Source: a virus
Direction: 5' to 3' (one strand)
Length of the DNA stretch: 44,951 bases
Virus genome (UHGV): UHGV-0212259
Positions 35,597 to 42,482 of this stretch are shown here, one piece after another. Every line of letters begins with the position of its first letter. Position 1 is the stretch's first letter. The position numbers and the translations under genes are program-made. Below the pieces are notes generated by a model that saw only the letters and a list, made by a program, of their open reading frames with translations, searched no databases and had not been told where the DNA came from.

Positions 35597-37938
35597 TATT
35601 TGAACCCCGGCGCGTTTCTTGTGGCCTTTCTGGCCTTGCTAATCTTACTGTTGCTGTTCAGCAAAGATGCGGCAACTTGCTCCTCGATGATGATACGCAA
35701 ACGGCCTTCATCATCTTGCTCGGTGGATACGTTGCCGATTTGAGAACTCGTGTTGTTTACGATAGTAACATTAGACGGGCCGGAAGAAGACCCGTTTTGC
35801 CCCATAATTTCTTTCATCTGCTGTGCGGTGCGAACACGCGATGCCCCCGCTGGCATGATAACTTCCGGCTTACCGCGTTCGGCGATGGTGGAAGCCTGCC
35901 CAGCGGATAACTGGCCGCCCTGTTCACGCGCGGACCTGATGGCGGAAATCTGCGCCATACCCGCCCCAACAGCAGCAGCAGCGGCTACAGGGGCCAGGAA
36001 CGGGCCAACTACAGGGATAGCCGCCGTGGACTTGTACGCCTCAATAGCCGCGGTGTATGTGGCGATAGTGGCCTGTACGATAGCGAATGCCTTATACGCA
36101 CCAGAAGCCTCACCCAAAGCCGAACCGATGTTTGAAGCCATGTTACCGAAGGCGGTTGCCGTTGCGTCAGCACGCTTGGTTGCGTATTGCTCGTTGATGG
36201 CGTTAAGCGCGGCCTGATACTGCTTCTCACTAATAAGCCCTTGCTCACGGTACTTATCTGCGACCGCCAGTTTCTGCTGCTCCTGGATGTCGAGAAGATC
36301 AAGCTCAGTAGCGTTCTGGCCAATAATCTGAGCCATGAAGTCGTCGCCTTTCTGCTTTTTCTCCTGCCGTTCTTTCTCGCGCTTATCCAATTCTTGCTGC
36401 CGTGCGGTATCCGCCTCCAGCATAATCTGAGTTTTGGCGTTCTCGTATTGTTGGTCGCTAAGAAGCCTATTGCCATAGAACTCCTGTAGCTTGGTTAGCT
36501 GCTGTTCCTGGTTGGCTTCTATTTTCTGGAATACGTCATCATTGAGATGAATCGACTGGTAGTAGAAATCCTCAGCAGCTTTCTTCTGGCGCTCGAACGC
36601 ATCCGCGGCTTTCTTAGCGGCTTTTGCACCAGCGCTATCATCTTCGGATCCGCCACCAGTACCCGTTACCTTAAATTTACTAAGCCCTTCTTCCTTAGCA
36701 GCCTCTTTGTCGATGTCATACGCCGCGCGTTTAAGCGCGACGATATTTTGCTGAGCCTCCACCTGTTCACGGAAACTTTTACGGGTCAGGTCAGCAACAT
36801 CGCGCTGAGTATCCAGTGCCATCCCCAGCTGGAAGTTGATATTTTTTGCTACGTCTACAGATTCACCTGGTGTGAAGGCCGCTTTCACTAGTCGCCCAGC
36901 GTCCTGTGCCCCTTTAACCATATCCTCAAAGAAGCGCTCCATAGCGGTGAATTCTTCTGCGATGAAATCGAGAGCATCGGCGGCGGATTCCGCTATGGTT
37001 GTCGCCGTTTGTTCGCCGCTGTCAGTGATACTTTTACTGCTAAAATCCCAAAGTTCATTCAGTCCGTTTATCGCATCGCCTACGAAGCCGAACGCGGCGT
37101 CAAACGACGTCTCTATGGCGCTGCCTACTTCTGACGCGATGTCGCCCCACATACGCATCTCAGCAGCAAGCTCCCCAGATGCAACCTGTGCATTAAGCTC
37201 CTGGATTAAGTCATCTATGTATCTGATAGGTTCGGCTAGGGCGCCAACATCAAGACTGGTGGCCAGTGTCATTTTTAACTGCGACCATGAGTCGCTGGCA
37301 CTGGCTATAGCGCCGTTGAGTGTGTTGGCCTGGTCCGCCATAGCACCCGCAAAGTTTACGTTACCAATGTTAAGAAGGTACTGCTCGATATCAGCAGCGC
37401 TCTTCTTAACTACCGTAGTGGTGCCCTGGAATGTAAATTCAACATCGTTTTTGTTCTGCTTGGCCTTGATGCCGAACTCTTTAAGGCGCTCAAATTCAAA
37501 TGTACTGGCGTCCGCAACGGCCTCAATCATCTGATTCAGGTCTTTACCCATAGCGGCGGCGGTGTTGCCGTAGGAGCGCAACGCTTCTTCTGATGGGGTG
37601 AGGCCGAGCGCCACAAGTTTACGGAAACCCTCTACTGCCTGCTCGAGCCCGTAAGGAGTGTCGCGCGCGAAGTCTTGCAGGATGCTTAATGCCTGTCTTG
37701 CGCCCTGTGTGCTCCCGGTTAACGTTTTCAGGCTGGCGGACATCTTGTCCAGTTGCCGTTGGGAGTCCACCAGTTCCTGCGCGGCCTTGTAAGCGGTAGC
37801 GGCGACAATTGAAGCAAGGCCCGCTACGGCGGTCCCCGCTACTTTTGCCGACTTGGAGAGATTATCAAGACGGTCCGATGTAGCTTTCGCGCCTTGCTCC
37901 GATACTTTTACAACTAAACTAGCTACATCAGCCATCAT
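35596..37938 (-). CDS. Tail tape measure protein
   Basis: 780 aa; Ala/Gln/Glu-rich coiled-coil; C-terminal Gly/Ala-rich hydrophobic region; follows G/T chaperone pair. Confidence 0.85.
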   Translation of the reverse strand: MMADVASLVVKVSEQGAKATSDRLDNLSKSAKVAGTAVAGLASIVAATAYKAAQELVDSQRQLDKMSASLKTLTGSTQGARQALSILQDFARDTPYGLEQAVEGFRKLVALGLTPSEEALRSYGNTAAAMGKDLNQMIEAVADASTFEFERLKEFGIKAKQNKNDVEFTFQGTTTVVKKSAADIEQYLLNIGNVNFAGAMADQANTLNGAIASASDSWSQLKMTLATSLDVGALAEPIRYIDDLIQELNAQVASGELAAEMRMWGDIASEVGSAIETSFDAAFGFVGDAINGLNELWDFSSKSITDSGEQTATTIAESAADALDFIAEEFTAMERFFEDMVKGAQDAGRLVKAAFTPGESVDVAKNINFQLGMALDTQRDVADLTRKSFREQVEAQQNIVALKRAAYDIDKEAAKEEGLSKFKVTGTGGGSEDDSAGAKAAKKAADAFERQKKAAEDFYYQSIHLNDDVFQKIEANQEQQLTKLQEFYGNRLLSDQQYENAKTQIMLEADTARQQELDKREKERQEKKQKGDDFMAQIIGQNATELDLLDIQEQQKLAVADKYREQGLISEKQYQAALNAINEQYATKRADATATAFGNMASNIGSALGEASGAYKAFAIVQATIATYTAAIEAYKSTAAIPVVGPFLAPVAAAAAVGAGMAQISAIRSAREQGGQLSAGQASTIAERGKPEVIMPAGASRVRTAQQMKEIMGQNGSSSGPSNVTIVNNTSSQIGNVSTEQDDEGRLRIIIEEQVAASLLNSNSKISKARKATRNAPGFK

Positions 37939-38287
37939 TTCTACCCTCGAAAATAGCGTCTAAGCTCATGATGATGTCAGATTCAAACATGCCTATATTC
38001 TGGCCTGAAACGGTGCTGTACGCCACTAAATCCGACCATCTTAACTGTTCACGCGGGTACATCTTGATGCCATCATCGTCCACTCGGCGGGTGAATTTGA
38101 TTTCCCGGTACTTCTCGAAGGTGGTTAGTAGCTCAGGGGGGCATTCTGGCCCGGTGTCCTGCGTTGCTTCCGGCGCGTCTTGCATAACCCCCATAGCAAT
38201 TAGCGCGGCTTTATGCCCGTCGGAGATACTGTCAAACTCCCGCCGTTTGTGGCGAGTTATGAAGTTCCAACGGGCAAACTGGAGCAA
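37928..38287 (-). CDS. Tail assembly chaperone, T-like extension (expressed as G-T fusion by -1 frameshift)
   Basis: ORF in -1 frame relative to G, open from 38320 through the G stop codon. Confidence 0.5.
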   Translation of the reverse strand: MLQFARWNFITRHKRREFDSISDGHKAALIAMGVMQDAPEATQDTGPECPPELLTTFEKYREIKFTRRVDDDGIKMYPREQLRWSDLVAYSTVSGQNIGMFESDIIMSLDAIFEGRNDG

Positions 38288-38292
38288 CGCGT

Positions 38293-38709
38293 CTACTTTT
38301 CCTGCAATTGGTGTAGCTGTTCATTGTGGAAAACAACAACGTGTTCAGCGAGGCGTTTATATTGTGAGAAAAGGGTATTCAGGTTCTCTTTATTAAATTC
38401 ATCGTCGAGACTCCAACCGTTAACTAGTTCAAGTGCTAACTGGCGGTTAAGGTCCGTCGCGGCGTCTTCCATCTTAATATTGTATTCCGAGAAATCTTTC
38501 AGTTCCTCGCATTTATCACGAAGCGGTTTCAATTTACCTAATGCCGCGCGGTACGCAAGTGTAAACGCCCTCATAGCTTTAACAGCAACGTCTGCCTCCG
38601 GTGAAACAACGTTAAGCCACTCCCCTGAATCGGTGCCGTCTTTCAGTGGGATCGGCATACGGGCGCCTTTTTCCGCCTCAGCTTCGTAATAAAAATCGGA
38701 AAGTTTCAT
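38293..38709 (-). CDS. Tail assembly chaperone (G-like)
   Basis: 138 aa acidic protein immediately upstream of tape measure gene; ends QLQEK at the putative slippery site. Confidence 0.55.
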   Translation of the reverse strand: MKLSDFYYEAEAEKGARMPIPLKDGTDSGEWLNVVSPEADVAVKAMRAFTLAYRAALGKLKPLRDKCEELKDFSEYNIKMEDAATDLNRQLALELVNGWSLDDEFNKENLNTLFSQYKRLAEHVVVFHNEQLHQLQEK

Positions 38710-38816
38710 TCTTTAATCCTTTGGTTAAGAGGTTACTGGTTAAGGTGAATGCGCCAGGCGGGAACCACCCGCTTTTCGTGTGCGACACTAGGCGCAAACT
38801 TATTCTAGCACACTAC

Positions 38817-38848
38817 TTGCAGGCCCCAATATAATAGGGTACTATTCA
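38817..38848 (+). promoter_or_regulatory. Promoter with overlapping operator (type A), third identical copy
   Basis: TTGCAG-GCCCCAA-TATAAT (38830..38835) overlapping TAATAGGGTACTATTCA. Confidence 0.55.
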
Positions 38849-38875
38849 CTTACACCAACAACGAAGGGGTTTAAA

Positions 38876-39067
38876 ATGTCAAGTTTACCAGTTTCCTTAA
38901 TTCTGTTTGCACTGCTCGTCTATTTCGCACCTTTCCTGGTTGCGTACTTCCGTAACCATAAAGCGAAGTTAGCGATATTCATGGCTAATCTGTTTCTTGG
39001 CTGGGTTCTTCTACCGTGGGTATTTATTTTAATCTGGGCTTGCAACTCGAACGTTAAAGAGAAGTGA
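38876..39067 (+). CDS. Small membrane protein (2 TM)
   Basis: 63 aa; two hydrophobic helices (LILFALLVYFAPFLVAYF, LFLGWVLLPWVFILIWA). Confidence 0.45.
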   Translation: MSSLPVSLILFALLVYFAPFLVAYFRNHKAKLAIFMANLFLGWVLLPWVFILIWACNSNVKEK

Positions 39068-39105
39068 GCTAGTATAGGACAAATCCTAAACACGAGGAAG
39101 TAAGC

Positions 39106-40236
39106 ATGGCCCGGAAGAAAATAACCGACGAACAGTTACAGGAAGAATTGAACGCCGGTATGAAGAATATCGACATCGCCCGTAAATACGGCATCTCAGA
39201 CCGCGTTATTCGCATCCGTAAAGCGAAGCTGGCTAAGAAAGGCGTAGGCCACGGGCGGGACGTTAGCCACCTTGTGCCAGATGGCTACAAGATTAAAGGA
39301 ACATCGTCACTTGTGGACGAGTTAGGCAACACTAAACTGCAATGGGTTAAGACCGACACCGATGCGGAACGTCAGGTCGAGTTAATGAAGGCCGTAATCG
39401 AGGGCATGAAGTCGGAGATTACCCCCGTTGCTCCTGTTAAAGCCGTTCGCACCAAACGAGACGACAAGCTACTCAACCTTTACACTGTGTCTGATTTCCA
39501 TCTCGGTATGCTGGCCTGGGCCGACGAGAGTGGCGACGACTGGGATATGAAGATTGCAGAAGACCTGTTCTCCCGTTGGTTCGATGCGGCATTCCAGAAA
39601 GCACCGGATGCGGGGACTGGGGTTATTAACCTGCTGGGCGACTTCGCGCACTTCGATAGTCTGGTTGCCGTTACACCTGCAAGCGGTCACGCCCTTGACG
39701 CCGACACCCGTTACCAGAAACTTGTCCGCTACATGATTCGCATGGTCCGCCGTGTTGTCGATATGGCGCGGGTTAAGCATAAAAATGTTCGCTTGCTTAT
39801 CGTGCAAGGGAATCACGACGAAAGTGGCATGATTTGGTTGGCTGAGATGTTCAGTACGCTGTATGACAATGAGCCTCGTGTGCTCGTCGATACGTCACCG
39901 GATGTTTACAAGATGGTGCAACACGGCAAAACGACGCTGTTCTTCCATCACGGGCATAAAGCACGATTCGACGCTATTGAACCGGTTATGATTGCCAAGT
40001 TCCGTAAAGCGTTCGGCGAGAGTGTTTACAGCTACGCCCACGTAGGCCATCTGCACCACCAGAAGATTGTAGAAAGCCGTAACATGATTGTTGAGCAACA
40101 CCGCACCTTAGCGGCTAAAGACGCCTACGCCTCTCGCGGCGGATGGATGTCAGGTCGTAGTGCAAATGTAATTACTTATAGCGCCGAATATGGCGAGGTC
40201 GCACGTTTAACTATTTCACCGGAGATGCTGGGATGA
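39106..40236 (+). CDS. Calcineurin-like metallophosphoesterase with N-terminal HTH-like domain
   Basis: 376 aa; ordered motifs DFH, GDFAHFD, GNHDE, HHGH, GHLHH; N-terminal NIDIARKYGISDRVIRIRKAKL resembles an HTH. Confidence 0.65.
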   Translation: MARKKITDEQLQEELNAGMKNIDIARKYGISDRVIRIRKAKLAKKGVGHGRDVSHLVPDGYKIKGTSSLVDELGNTKLQWVKTDTDAERQVELMKAVIEGMKSEITPVAPVKAVRTKRDDKLLNLYTVSDFHLGMLAWADESGDDWDMKIAEDLFSRWFDAAFQKAPDAGTGVINLLGDFAHFDSLVAVTPASGHALDADTRYQKLVRYMIRMVRRVVDMARVKHKNVRLLIVQGNHDESGMIWLAEMFSTLYDNEPRVLVDTSPDVYKMVQHGKTTLFFHHGHKARFDAIEPVMIAKFRKAFGESVYSYAHVGHLHHQKIVESRNMIVEQHRTLAAKDAYASRGGWMSGRSANVITYSAEYGEVARLTISPEMLG

Positions 40237-40718
40237 AAGATATTGTGATTTTCGATTTAGACGGGACATTGGCGGATGGTACTCATCGTTTACACCTGCT
40301 GCCGAAAGATAACTACAACGAAACATGGGCGTGGAAACCCTTTAACATGGCGTGCAAAGATGATGCGCCGATTAAAGATAACATCGAACTATGTAACGCC
40401 CTTAATCGTCGCTATGCCGTTATCATTTTAACCGGCCGCAGTGATGACGCAGAAAAAGAAACCAGAATGTGGTTGCAGCGCCACCGCGTCGAATTTTACC
40501 AGTTAATCATGCGCAGCAAACACGACAACAGAAAAGACATCGTAATTAAAGAAGAGGTGTTACGTGCTATCGGGCTGGAAAGAATATTGTGCGCATTCGA
40601 CGACTCTCCCGCGGTAATAAAGCATTTCCGCAGCCTCGGCTTAACCACCCACGCGGTTACCGAATACGACTGTAACGGTGGCTCTGCACACTTAAAATCA
40701 CACGGGAGCGATAAGTAA
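40233..40718 (+). CDS. HAD-superfamily phosphatase (polynucleotide 3'-phosphatase / nucleotidase-like)
   Basis: 161 aa; motif I FDLDGTL at residues 7-13, motif II ILTGR, conserved Lys in NRKDIVIKEE, motif IV CAFDD; resembles phosphatase domain of T4 polynucleotide kinase (from memory). Confidence 0.6.
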   Translation: MKDIVIFDLDGTLADGTHRLHLLPKDNYNETWAWKPFNMACKDDAPIKDNIELCNALNRRYAVIILTGRSDDAEKETRMWLQRHRVEFYQLIMRSKHDNRKDIVIKEEVLRAIGLERILCAFDDSPAVIKHFRSLGLTTHAVTEYDCNGGSAHLKSHGSDK

Positions 40719-41272
40719 TGGCTAAGGTAATTATTCTTAATGGTCCGGCGGGTTGCGGGAAAGACACACTTGCTATGGCGCTGGTAGAAATGGGCTTTGC
40801 GAAAGGAACTACCAGTTTCAAGAATCCAATGTTCGATATTGCTTTGGCAGCGTTAGGCCCGGATGCTTACCGCGAATTTCTCGACGGCTACGACGACCGG
40901 GCACGGAAAGAAAAGCCAGAGGGTTTTCTTAATGGGTTGTCCCGTCGTCAGTTCATGATTGCCGTTTCTGAGCAATTCATTAAACCGGTATTCGGTGATG
41001 ATTATTTCGGTAAGTATCTTGCTGAAAACTTGCCAGACGGCAACGAAGTTTTTGTAGTGTCCGACGGTGGATTCGCCAGTGAAGTTGCCCCTATCGTCGC
41101 CGCGGGGCATGACGTGCGAATCGTTCGCCTCCATCGTGACGGCTATACATTTGAGGGGGACAGCCGTGGTTATCTGTATGGCGTTGATGGTGTAAAAGAT
41201 TACGATACCTACATCATACCAGGTGATGTTAAATCGAACGTTATAGACATTGCTTTAAAATTAGGTTTGTAA
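40718..41272 (+). CDS. P-loop nucleotide kinase, dNMP kinase-like
   Basis: 184 aa; Walker A GPAGCGKDT at residues 9-17; overall pattern resembles T4 gene 1 dNMP kinase (from memory). Confidence 0.55.
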   Translation: MAKVIILNGPAGCGKDTLAMALVEMGFAKGTTSFKNPMFDIALAALGPDAYREFLDGYDDRARKEKPEGFLNGLSRRQFMIAVSEQFIKPVFGDDYFGKYLAENLPDGNEVFVVSDGGFASEVAPIVAAGHDVRIVRLHRDGYTFEGDSRGYLYGVDGVKDYDTYIIPGDVKSNVIDIALKLGL

Positions 41273-41302
41273 GAAAAAGGCCCCTAACGGGGCCTTAGTT
41301 TT
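41272..41302. terminator. Bidirectional rho-independent terminator
   Basis: A-run, hairpin AGGCCCC-taac-GGGGCCT (41278..41295), T-rich tail; between kinase cassette and major tail gene. Confidence 0.6.
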
Positions 41303-42482
41303 ATGCGTAACTAATACGTTGAATTACGATAGACGACTGATACTGGTTGCCGGTAGCCTGGCCTTCAATGGACTGAGTGATTGACTCGGGTCCGCCAATC
41401 TCTGGTGTGACCGCCGTAAGCTCTGCGCGTTTTAAACTGAAAGACATAGCCCCGTTTACCCCCGCCAGAATAGAGTTAATCTCTACCTGCTGCTCGTTGA
41501 TAAACTTCTGAATCATCGCCATGTCGTACAGCTTGCCGGAGATGGAGAAGGTGTTAGCTGCGCGACCACGTTCCACGAACGCAACGCTACTGTTGCCGAG
41601 TTCAAACTGAGCAGATGCGCCGTTGTCGTTGGTGATGGTCAGAGTATCGCAACGCAACGGCGTAGAACCGTCGAACACGGACACATCTACAGAAGAGAAC
41701 GGCTCGTCACCAAACGTAACAGAGGAGAAATTAGAACCGGTCGGCGGCGTAGTGAGAATCTCCTGACTGCGACCGATGAATGGGAAGCTGCCAGTTACCA
41801 TCGCGTTAACAGCCTGTTCGATGGTAAAACCAGAAACTTCCACGCCTTTGGTTAACGTGTACGCGTCAGTACCGCCGCACTGGCCTTTGTACCAGGTAAG
41901 GATAGAGAACGTCTTACACGTCTTACACGTGTTACCGGTTTCCAGCGTGTCGCCGGTTTTAGCCTTACTAGTTTTTGTCTCGGTGGTCAGGGTGTGTTGG
42001 ATGCCCGCACCAGTAACAACCTTAGCCTTTACTGCAGTAACAATAAATGGTTTTGCGTTATCGCCTGTTAAATCGGTAAATGCAATCAGGTCGCCTACCC
42101 CAACTCCGTCAGCGATAAAACTGCCGGTAGCGCGTGTGAACGTCTTGCCCGCGGGTGCGACGGTAATCGACAGACTGGACAGGGAAACACCGGATTGCCA
42201 CGTAGAGCCTAAAGCACCAGCTAGCCAGTCATCCTGGCTTTTCGAGCTAAGCTCGATCGCGTATTCACCGCTAACCTGTTTGTTACCGGTGCGGATGGAT
42301 GTAGTTTCACGGCTGCCGTCCAGTTCGTTGGAAGTCAGCGCATCGCGGGTTACGGCAGGAACGCCACCAGTGTTACGCAACGGAGACCAGACCGGGTTAC
42401 TTGGTGTTACGCCCGGGGTCACTTCTGCCACATAGAATTGCGCGGTATTCGCGCCCTTAAAAGGAGTTGTAGCCATATTCAC
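41301..42482 (-). CDS. Major tail (tube) protein
   Basis: 393 aa immediately upstream (in transcription order) of G/T chaperones and tape measure, interrupted only by the plus-strand cassette. Confidence 0.6.
   Translation of the reverse strand: MNMATTPFKGANTAQFYVAEVTPGVTPSNPVWSPLRNTGGVPAVTRDALTSNELDGSRETTSIRTGNKQVSGEYAIELSSKSQDDWLAGALGSTWQSGVSLSSLSITVAPAGKTFTRATGSFIADGVGVGDLIAFTDLTGDNAKPFIVTAVKAKVVTGAGIQHTLTTETKTSKAKTGDTLETGNTCKTCKTFSILTWYKGQCGGTDAYTLTKGVEVSGFTIEQAVNAMVTGSFPFIGRSQEILTTPPTGSNFSSVTFGDEPFSSVDVSVFDGSTPLRCDTLTITNDNGASAQFELGNSSVAFVERGRAANTFSISGKLYDMAMIQKFINEQQVEINSILAGVNGAMSFSLKRAELTAVTPEIGGPESITQSIEGQATGNQYQSSIVIQRISYA

Follow-up and report, generated by a model that had tools for sequence, protein, structure and literature searches.

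A four-gene plus-strand cassette in the tail module

The virus genome UHGV-0212259 was analysed as one stretch of 44,951 nucleotides (nt), referred to here as the window, and the subject of this report is a cassette of four plus-strand genes at 38876-41272 that is set between the minus-strand genes for the tail tube and the tail assembly chaperones (Table 1). The window is a near-complete, permuted ~45 kb genome of a K1G-like Escherichia coli siphophage (Kagunavirus, subfamily Guernseyvirinae). As a guide to gene content we used a close relative that is 93% identical and has 75 annotated genes. Its plus strand carries a replication module (helicase-primase, exonuclease, annealing protein, DNA polymerase, helicase and primase) and its minus strand carries the head, tail and lysis genes; the map of open reading frames (ORFs) in the window has the same layout.

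Table 1. Coordinates of the cassette genes, their candidate control elements and the flanking tail genes
Feature	Coordinates	Strand	Remarks
Candidate control region: perfect −10 hexamer TATAAT (38830-38835) overlapping the palindrome AATAG-N4-CTATT (38833-38846)	38830..38846	+	Read from the sequence; promoter function predicted
ORF1, 63 amino acids (aa), two predicted transmembrane helices, T4 Imm-like superinfection immunity protein	38876..39067	+	Pfam PF14373, phrog_1039
ORF2, 376 aa, N-terminal helix-turn-helix (HTH; ~aa 8-44), β-hairpin/helix linker, Mre11/SbcD-like binuclear metallophosphoesterase (MPE) domain (~aa 119-376)	39106..40236	+	
ORF3, 161 aa, PNKP-type HAD (DxDxT) phosphatase	40233..40718	+	Start overlaps ORF2 stop (ATGA)
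ORF4, 184 aa, T4 gp1-type P-loop kinase, deoxynucleoside monophosphate (dNMP) kinase-like	40718..41272	+	Start overlaps ORF3 stop (TAATG)
Bidirectional intrinsic terminator hairpin, between convergent ORF4 and tail tube gene	41277..41296	both	Terminator scan: 8 pairs, 6 G-C, loop of 4, T-rich tails on each side
Tail tube gene	41301-42482	−	Pfam Phage_tube_2, 8e-38
G tail assembly chaperone frame	38293-38709	−	Flanks the cassette
T tail assembly chaperone frame	37928-38287	−	Flanks the cassette

A search of deposited genomes with the 2.65-kb block at 38700-41350 returned matches in 362 phage records. The top match was Escherichia phage BUCT825, with 94.4% identity over 100% of the block. Next came numerous Kagunavirus genomes, among them K1G, K1ind1-3 and RP180, and the matches also took in 237 Salmonella phage records. 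Dozens of deposited Kagunavirus genomes align at 88-94% nucleotide identity across the full 2.65 kb, with position and orientation unchanged. Because of these 362 records, and because each product matches a PHROG family (E-values of 7e-23, 6e-165, 9e-66 and 2e-45 for ORF1 to ORF4), the four frames, which a first-pass annotation made from the letters of the window had proposed at this place, are real genes and not chance ORFs. The cassette is thus an already known feature, annotated in dozens of near-identical deposited genomes back to K1G, and all four of its proteins fall into known families; NCBIfam yielded no meaningful match. Its GC content is slightly lower (0.45-0.49 outside the phosphoesterase gene) than that of the flanks (0.50-0.56); the dip was considered as a sign of horizontal acquisition, and the difference is too slight to decide either way. 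In the neighbouring tail genes, the two chaperone ORFs (37928-38709, minus strand) each match one half of the same 259-aa PHROG family, phrog_15027 (N-terminal positions 1-138 and C-terminal positions 143-259), consistent with the usual G/GT programmed frameshift.

Families and catalytic residues of the encoded proteins

The largest product, ORF2, matches phrog_704 (‘DNA repair exonuclease’) at 6e-165, and its match to Pfam Metallophos lies below the cutoff. Our first homologue search returned only proteins at least 96% identical to ORF2; a diverse alignment was obtained from a search of 50% representatives and then a profile search. The family is very broad: it comprises 4623 clusters at 50% identity, and 2002 of 50,697 phage records carry a member, in phage groups that differ widely from one another. 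The N-terminal HTH is kept throughout. PHROG and depositors label these proteins ‘DNA repair exonuclease’ or ‘DNA polymerase II small subunit’. All five motifs of a binuclear metal center (DxH, GD, GNH[D/E], H and GHxH) are present in ORF2, as D130xH132, GD179xxH182, GN236H237, H282 and GH315xH317. In alignments of 51 and 56 diverse members D130, H132, D179, N236, H237, H282 and H317 show no variation, and H315 shows almost none. Searches of solved structures with the ORF2 sequence gave nothing useful, the best MPE matches of the profile having E-values of 0.5-0.7, and ORF4 returned only P-loop matches; structure prediction was therefore needed for both proteins. The predicted ORF2 fold is closest to Mre11/SbcD and its top structural matches are DNA nucleases, while lambda phosphatase and the phosphatase domain of Pnkp are not its closest structural relatives. 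The motifs, the HTH and this fold bear out the first-pass call of a calcineurin-like metallophosphoesterase with an N-terminal HTH-like extension.

ORF3 matches Pfam HAD_PNKP at 7.1e-20 (72 bits, cutoff 27.6, covering positions 2-140 of the 143-position model) and phrog_415 at 9e-66, and its best sequence matches in the PDB are Pnkp1 (4xrp, 2.5e-6) and T4 Pnkp. A profile built from 15 homologues aligned with the T4 Pnkp phosphatase domain (hhalign 97.8%, E 7e-13), so the proposed resemblance to the 3′-phosphatase domain of T4 polynucleotide kinase was correct. Residues of the T4 Pnkp phosphatase known from published mutagenesis are D165, D167, R176, R213, D254, D277 and D278. In the alignment ORF3 D8, D10, R19, T67/R69, D102, K106 and D123/D124 correspond to T4 D165, D167, R176, S211/R213, D254, K258 and D277/D278. 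Among the 15 homologues D8, D10, R19, R69, D102 and D124 are invariant, and D123 is kept in at least 90%. ORF3 is a stand-alone 161-aa protein, neither fused to nor partnered with a Pnk-type 5′-kinase.

The same profile also aligned with T5 Dmp, a 5′-dNMPase (hhalign 88.9%, E 2.4e-6), a similarity that makes either 3′-phosphate ends or dNMPs a possible substrate of ORF3. After its DxDGT motif the ORF3 family has an insertion with the invariant residues H18-R19-x-H21-x-L23-P24, W34, N38 and D44 (ORF3 aa 18-35 correspond to window positions 40286-40337). The insertion is absent from T4 Pnkp and partly common to T5 Dmp (locus L092 124-858, minus strand); it lies where HAD enzymes have a cap, and may determine the choice between a mononucleotide and a polynucleotide end as substrate.

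ORF4 matches phrog_139 (‘dNMP kinase’) at 1.9e-45. Its P-loop, GPAGCGKD (aa 9-16), fits the pattern GxxxxGKD, and G14, K15 and D16 are invariant in 50 homologues; the corresponding T4 gp1 sequence is GVKRSGKD. The predicted ORF4 structure is closest in fold to T4 dNMP kinase, and not to polynucleotide kinases or other P-loop kinases. Sequence similarity to gp1 is weak: hhalign gave 63% probability and E 7e-5 over the N-terminal 72 columns only, and the Arg of T4 ‘PDTRQD’ is a Gly in ORF4 (‘SDGGF’), with DGGF across the family against DTRQ in T4. By fold and by PHROG match, however, the protein is what had been proposed, a P-loop kinase resembling T4 dNMP kinase. Its location in the tail module is not odd, because the T4 dNMP kinase gene likewise lies among structural genes.

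The first gene encodes the two-transmembrane peptide noted in the first-pass annotation, and its family can now be named. ORF1 matches Pfam Imm_superinfect (PF14373) at 3.9e-13 (49.5 bits, cutoff 27.9) and phrog_1039 (‘immunity to superinfection’) at 6.9e-23, and its 63 residues include two hydrophobic stretches, as in the small two-helix membrane proteins of this family. We therefore assign ORF1 by sequence to the T4 Imm superinfection-immunity family and predict a role in exclusion. In published transcriptomics of one Kagunavirus the Imm gene is classed as ‘late’ (PMC12645636), on a time scale and with an annotation too coarse for timing the cassette operon. The first slot is exchangeable among relatives: comparison of loci L010, L016, L017, L021 and L024 with L011-L015, L019 and L022 shows that it is occupied by Imm-like two-transmembrane proteins with two different N-terminal halves or by an unrelated 108-aa protein with a signal peptide (MRKLVLALG...), downstream of an intergenic region that is nearly invariant. 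It looks like a diversifying superinfection-exclusion or moron slot.

Control region and terminator

A promoter and operator had been placed at 38817..38848 in the first-pass annotation, and this proposal stands in part. The perfect −10 hexamer and the palindrome that overlaps it are present, and 17 relatives show almost no variation across 38790-38850. However, there is no good −35 element at 16-18 nt from the hexamer, and a scan with the sigma-70 consensus did not report the TATAAT site; the sole plus-strand site that it found near the start of the cassette is a different, weak one at 38849-38877. Moreover, promoter-like sites in the upstream region are no commoner than in shuffled sequences (5 found, 4.8 expected). 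A plus-strand promoter/operator upstream of the cassette is thus plausible on its sequence features.

The intergenic region also contains, on the minus strand at 38734-38798, a match to the Rfam int-alpA RNA motif (RF02996; 36.4 bits against a gathering score of 35.8) in which nearly all conserved consensus nucleotides are present. Its minimum free-energy fold is the consensus structure, an outer stem around two hairpins, with a z-score of only −1.6. On that strand the tail assembly chaperone start codon follows 25 nt downstream of the motif, which is inside the stretch that is near-invariant in the 17 relatives and may be the leader of the chaperone/tape-measure transcript. Given the position of the motif in this conserved stretch, the region is probably used by the minus-strand tail operon, either in addition to the plus-strand cassette or in its stead. 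Read on the plus strand, the second int-alpA hairpin plus TTTT forms a terminator-like element at 38758-38776, just ahead of the candidate promoter of the cassette.

At the other end, the predicted bidirectional terminator was confirmed, the 8-bp hairpin scoring on either strand. The arms of the inverted repeat extend over 41270-41284 and 41289-41303.

Gene linkage, proposed function and comparison with known systems

Gene linkage was assessed in 80 IMG/VR viral loci that encode a homologue of the kinase. The HAD phosphatase gene lies upstream on the same strand in 65 of them; the HTH-MPE is also present in 25 and Imm in 11. In T1-like phages (Drexlerviridae) the trio occurs in the order MPE-HAD-kinase just upstream of the holin and endolysin genes, with 40-50% protein identity, and in other Guernseyvirinae (K1G, K1ind1-3, BUCT825, RP180 and Jersey-like Salmonella phages) the cassette is essentially unchanged, only the first gene varying. 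The HTH-MPE is also found alone; in lambdoid prophages, for instance, it is flanked by the nin region and the lysis genes. In two JGI metagenome contigs (L007 and L008) and a Burkholderia pseudomallei prophage (L009) the lone gene has the nin/RecA-dependent-nuclease region on one side and the lysis or terminase genes on the other. This site in lambdoid-type phages is a classic late-operon moron position. In L007 and L008 a gene for an Acb2/Tad1-like sponge lies ~1.4 kb from the HTH-MPE.

A different arrangement was found in the Marinomonas podophage CPP1m (L088 4957-7531), where the gene order is 5′-3′ exonuclease, endonuclease VII, a 337-aa MPE, the kinase homologue and an ATP-dependent DNA ligase. 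Alignment of this MPE with the ORF2 profile by hhalign revealed no homology beyond a short stretch at a catalytic motif. By sequence, this kinase family is thus paired with an MPE a second time, and independently, in Marinomonas, and that an unrelated MPE adjoins the kinase in these phages argues for a functional link between the two activities.

The reading that we favour, tentatively and at somewhat under even odds, is that the unit is an operon for host-DNA breakdown and dNMP salvage lying in the tail module, to which a swappable superinfection-exclusion gene has been added. The gene structure, the families and folds, the intact catalytic motifs, the overlapping start and stop codons, the conservation and the linkage are established by the analysis; substrates, the order of reactions and the biological role we infer from family assignment, linkage and analogy. 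According to this proposal, the HTH-fused, Mre11/SbcD-like MPE would bind and cut DNA, most likely the host chromosome, as T5 A1 and the mycobacteriophage MPE Gp48 do; Gp48 disrupts host genome integrity (PMC12287305). MPE-superfamily enzymes, the Pseudomonas putida MPE among them, can produce both 3′-phosphate and 3′-OH ends, and the PNKP-type HAD phosphatase would strip 3′-phosphates from the fragments or nucleotides. The gp1-type kinase would then phosphorylate the dNMPs so released to dNDPs, on the way to dNTPs for the phage DNA polymerase. The Imm-like membrane protein would act separately, blocking DNA entry of superinfecting phages. It is the presence of the kinase within the same operon that suggests salvage. 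No other nucleotide-metabolism gene is annotated among the 75 genes of the close relative, which has its own DNA polymerase, helicases and exonuclease. The authors of a study of the T1-like phage KanT1 arrived independently at the guess ‘enhancing nucleotide supply’ (PMC13164509).

Less probable, at about one chance in four, is that the genes are neighbours that share no single pathway. The HTH-MPE would then be a replication, recombination or DNA-maturation nuclease (an Mre11-like or PolD-DP1-like exonuclease) acting on phage DNA, the HAD phosphatase and kinase would separately adjust the nucleotide pool and Imm would be an unrelated moron. Consistent with this, the HTH-MPE occurs in ~2000 of the 50,697 phage records, often alone, the HAD-kinase pair is often found without it, and the database labels of the HTH-MPE name an exonuclease or a polymerase subunit. 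However, the stop codon of the MPE gene overlaps the start codon of the HAD gene, gene order is kept in T1-like phages even at 40-50% protein identity, and the close relative has no annotated Rad50/SbcC partner for an Mre11-type enzyme; the Marinomonas pairing, too, points to a functional link. The first-pass annotation had proposed a further use of the nucleotide pool, the rewiring of dNMPs for a modified base. We rejected this idea, as no base-modification or thymidylate-synthase-like gene is annotated in the close relative.

End healing by a split polynucleotide kinase-phosphatase, the idea favoured in the first-pass annotation, is in our judgment unlikely. Here the HAD would remove 3′-phosphates, the kinase would phosphorylate 5′-OH ends and the MPE would open 2′,3′-cyclic phosphates or trim ends; a host ligase (LigA for DNA nicks, RtcB for RNA) would do the sealing, repairing phage DNA or tRNAs cut by host defence nucleases. 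The HAD phosphatase favours such a scheme, since the characterised enzymes nearest to it are polynucleotide phosphatases that act in RNA and DNA repair (Pnkp1 and T4 Pnkp, the latter with the catalytic residues aligned), and its linkage to the kinase in 65 of 80 loci echoes the kinase-plus-phosphatase architecture of Pnkp. In Marinomonas, moreover, the kinase homologue lies between an MPE and an ATP-dependent DNA ligase, a set that matches the kinase, MPE phosphatase and ligase activities of bacterial Pnkp (PMC3675462). The other two enzymes speak against it: the kinase model is closest to T4 dNMP kinase and not to polynucleotide kinases, and the MPE is closest to DNA nucleases and not to cyclic-phosphodiesterases of the RNA-repair type. 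In addition, neither the cassette nor the 75 annotated genes of the close relative include a ligase, as had been noted for the cassette at the outset, or, in particular, the RNA ligase that accompanies Pnkp in T4-type RNA repair. Less likely again is that end healing is the joint, ligase-independent task of the HAD and the gp1-fold kinase, with the kinase recruited to phosphorylate 5′-OH polynucleotide ends, the HTH-MPE processing 2′,3′-cyclic or 3′-blocked ends and a host ligase finishing the repair. If true, the pair would give small siphophages a counter-defence against host nucleases that leave 3′-phosphate and 5′-OH ends; polynucleotide kinases would gain a new class, and anti-defence systems a new module.

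We consider it very improbable that the MPE, the HAD phosphatase or both degrade the cyclic oligonucleotides or similar second messengers on which CBASS, Pycsar, Thoeris or type III CRISPR systems rely, the remaining function put forward in the first-pass annotation. A PADLOC scan of the four proteins gave no match, the best structural matches of the MPE are DNA nucleases, its HTH is a family-wide feature, and the linked dNMP kinase would be left unexplained.

If the salvage reading is true, it would name the genes for host chromosome destruction and for replication supply in small virulent siphophages of the T1-like, Jersey-like and K1G-like groups, several of which are therapy candidates and synthetic-biology chassis. 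It would also provide a counterpart to T5 A1/Dmp in which host nucleotides are recycled instead of excreted. Given the size of the HTH-MPE family (~2000 phage records and >4600 clusters at 50% identity), one biochemical study would annotate many genes.

Comparison with characterised enzymes shows both likenesses and differences. ORF2 shares its predicted fold with Mre11/SbcD, but it carries an N-terminal HTH and β-hairpin module in place of the capping domain. It also differs from Mre11/SbcD and from the Pseudomonas putida MPE, which cuts single-stranded DNA in both orientations and leaves mixed 3′-PO4 and 3′-OH ends (PMC7826289), in that it is without a Rad50/SbcC partner and in that its profile matches to solved structures are insignificant. 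With T4 Pnkp/PseT, bacterial Pnkp1 and Pnkp-Hen1 the cassette has in common the HAD_PNKP domain, the aligned catalytic residues and the genetic linkage of a kinase to the phosphatase. Unlike in T4 Pnkp and the bacterial RNA repair enzymes, however, the phosphatase is free-standing, the linked kinase is of the dNMP-kinase and not the Pnk type, and ORF3 carries a 15-residue insertion that T4 Pnkp is without. ORF4, in turn, is only 21% identical to T4 gp1 (PDB 1DEK); at 184 aa against 241 aa it is without a stretch of ~55 residues from the middle of gp1, and the gp1 ‘DTR’ segment reads ‘DGG’ in its whole family.

The closest parallel to the proposed salvage operon is found in T5, where the gene for A1 lies two small genes from that for the HAD dNMPase Dmp. 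A1, a predicted metallophosphatase, is necessary and sufficient for digestion of the host chromosome, and the dNMPs set free are the substrate of Dmp (bioRxiv 10.64898/2026.04.02.716235). The likeness to the T5 set of A1, Dmp and dNMP kinase is that a phage metallophosphoesterase and a DxDGT HAD phosphatase are encoded in one transcription unit, and the two HAD families are detectably related, with a common HR...P...N.AC..D insertion after motif I. Nevertheless, the HAD core of ORF3 is closer to T4 Pnkp than to Dmp, and ORF2, which has an HTH, is without detectable homology to A1 save for a short stretch at the GNHD motif (hhalign probability 8.7%). Judged by sequence, T5 A1 and the Marinomonas MPE are thus analogies to ORF2 and not members of its family. 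The systems differ, finally, in the fate of the nucleotides: T5 excretes nucleosides, whereas here the kinase is encoded in the same operon.

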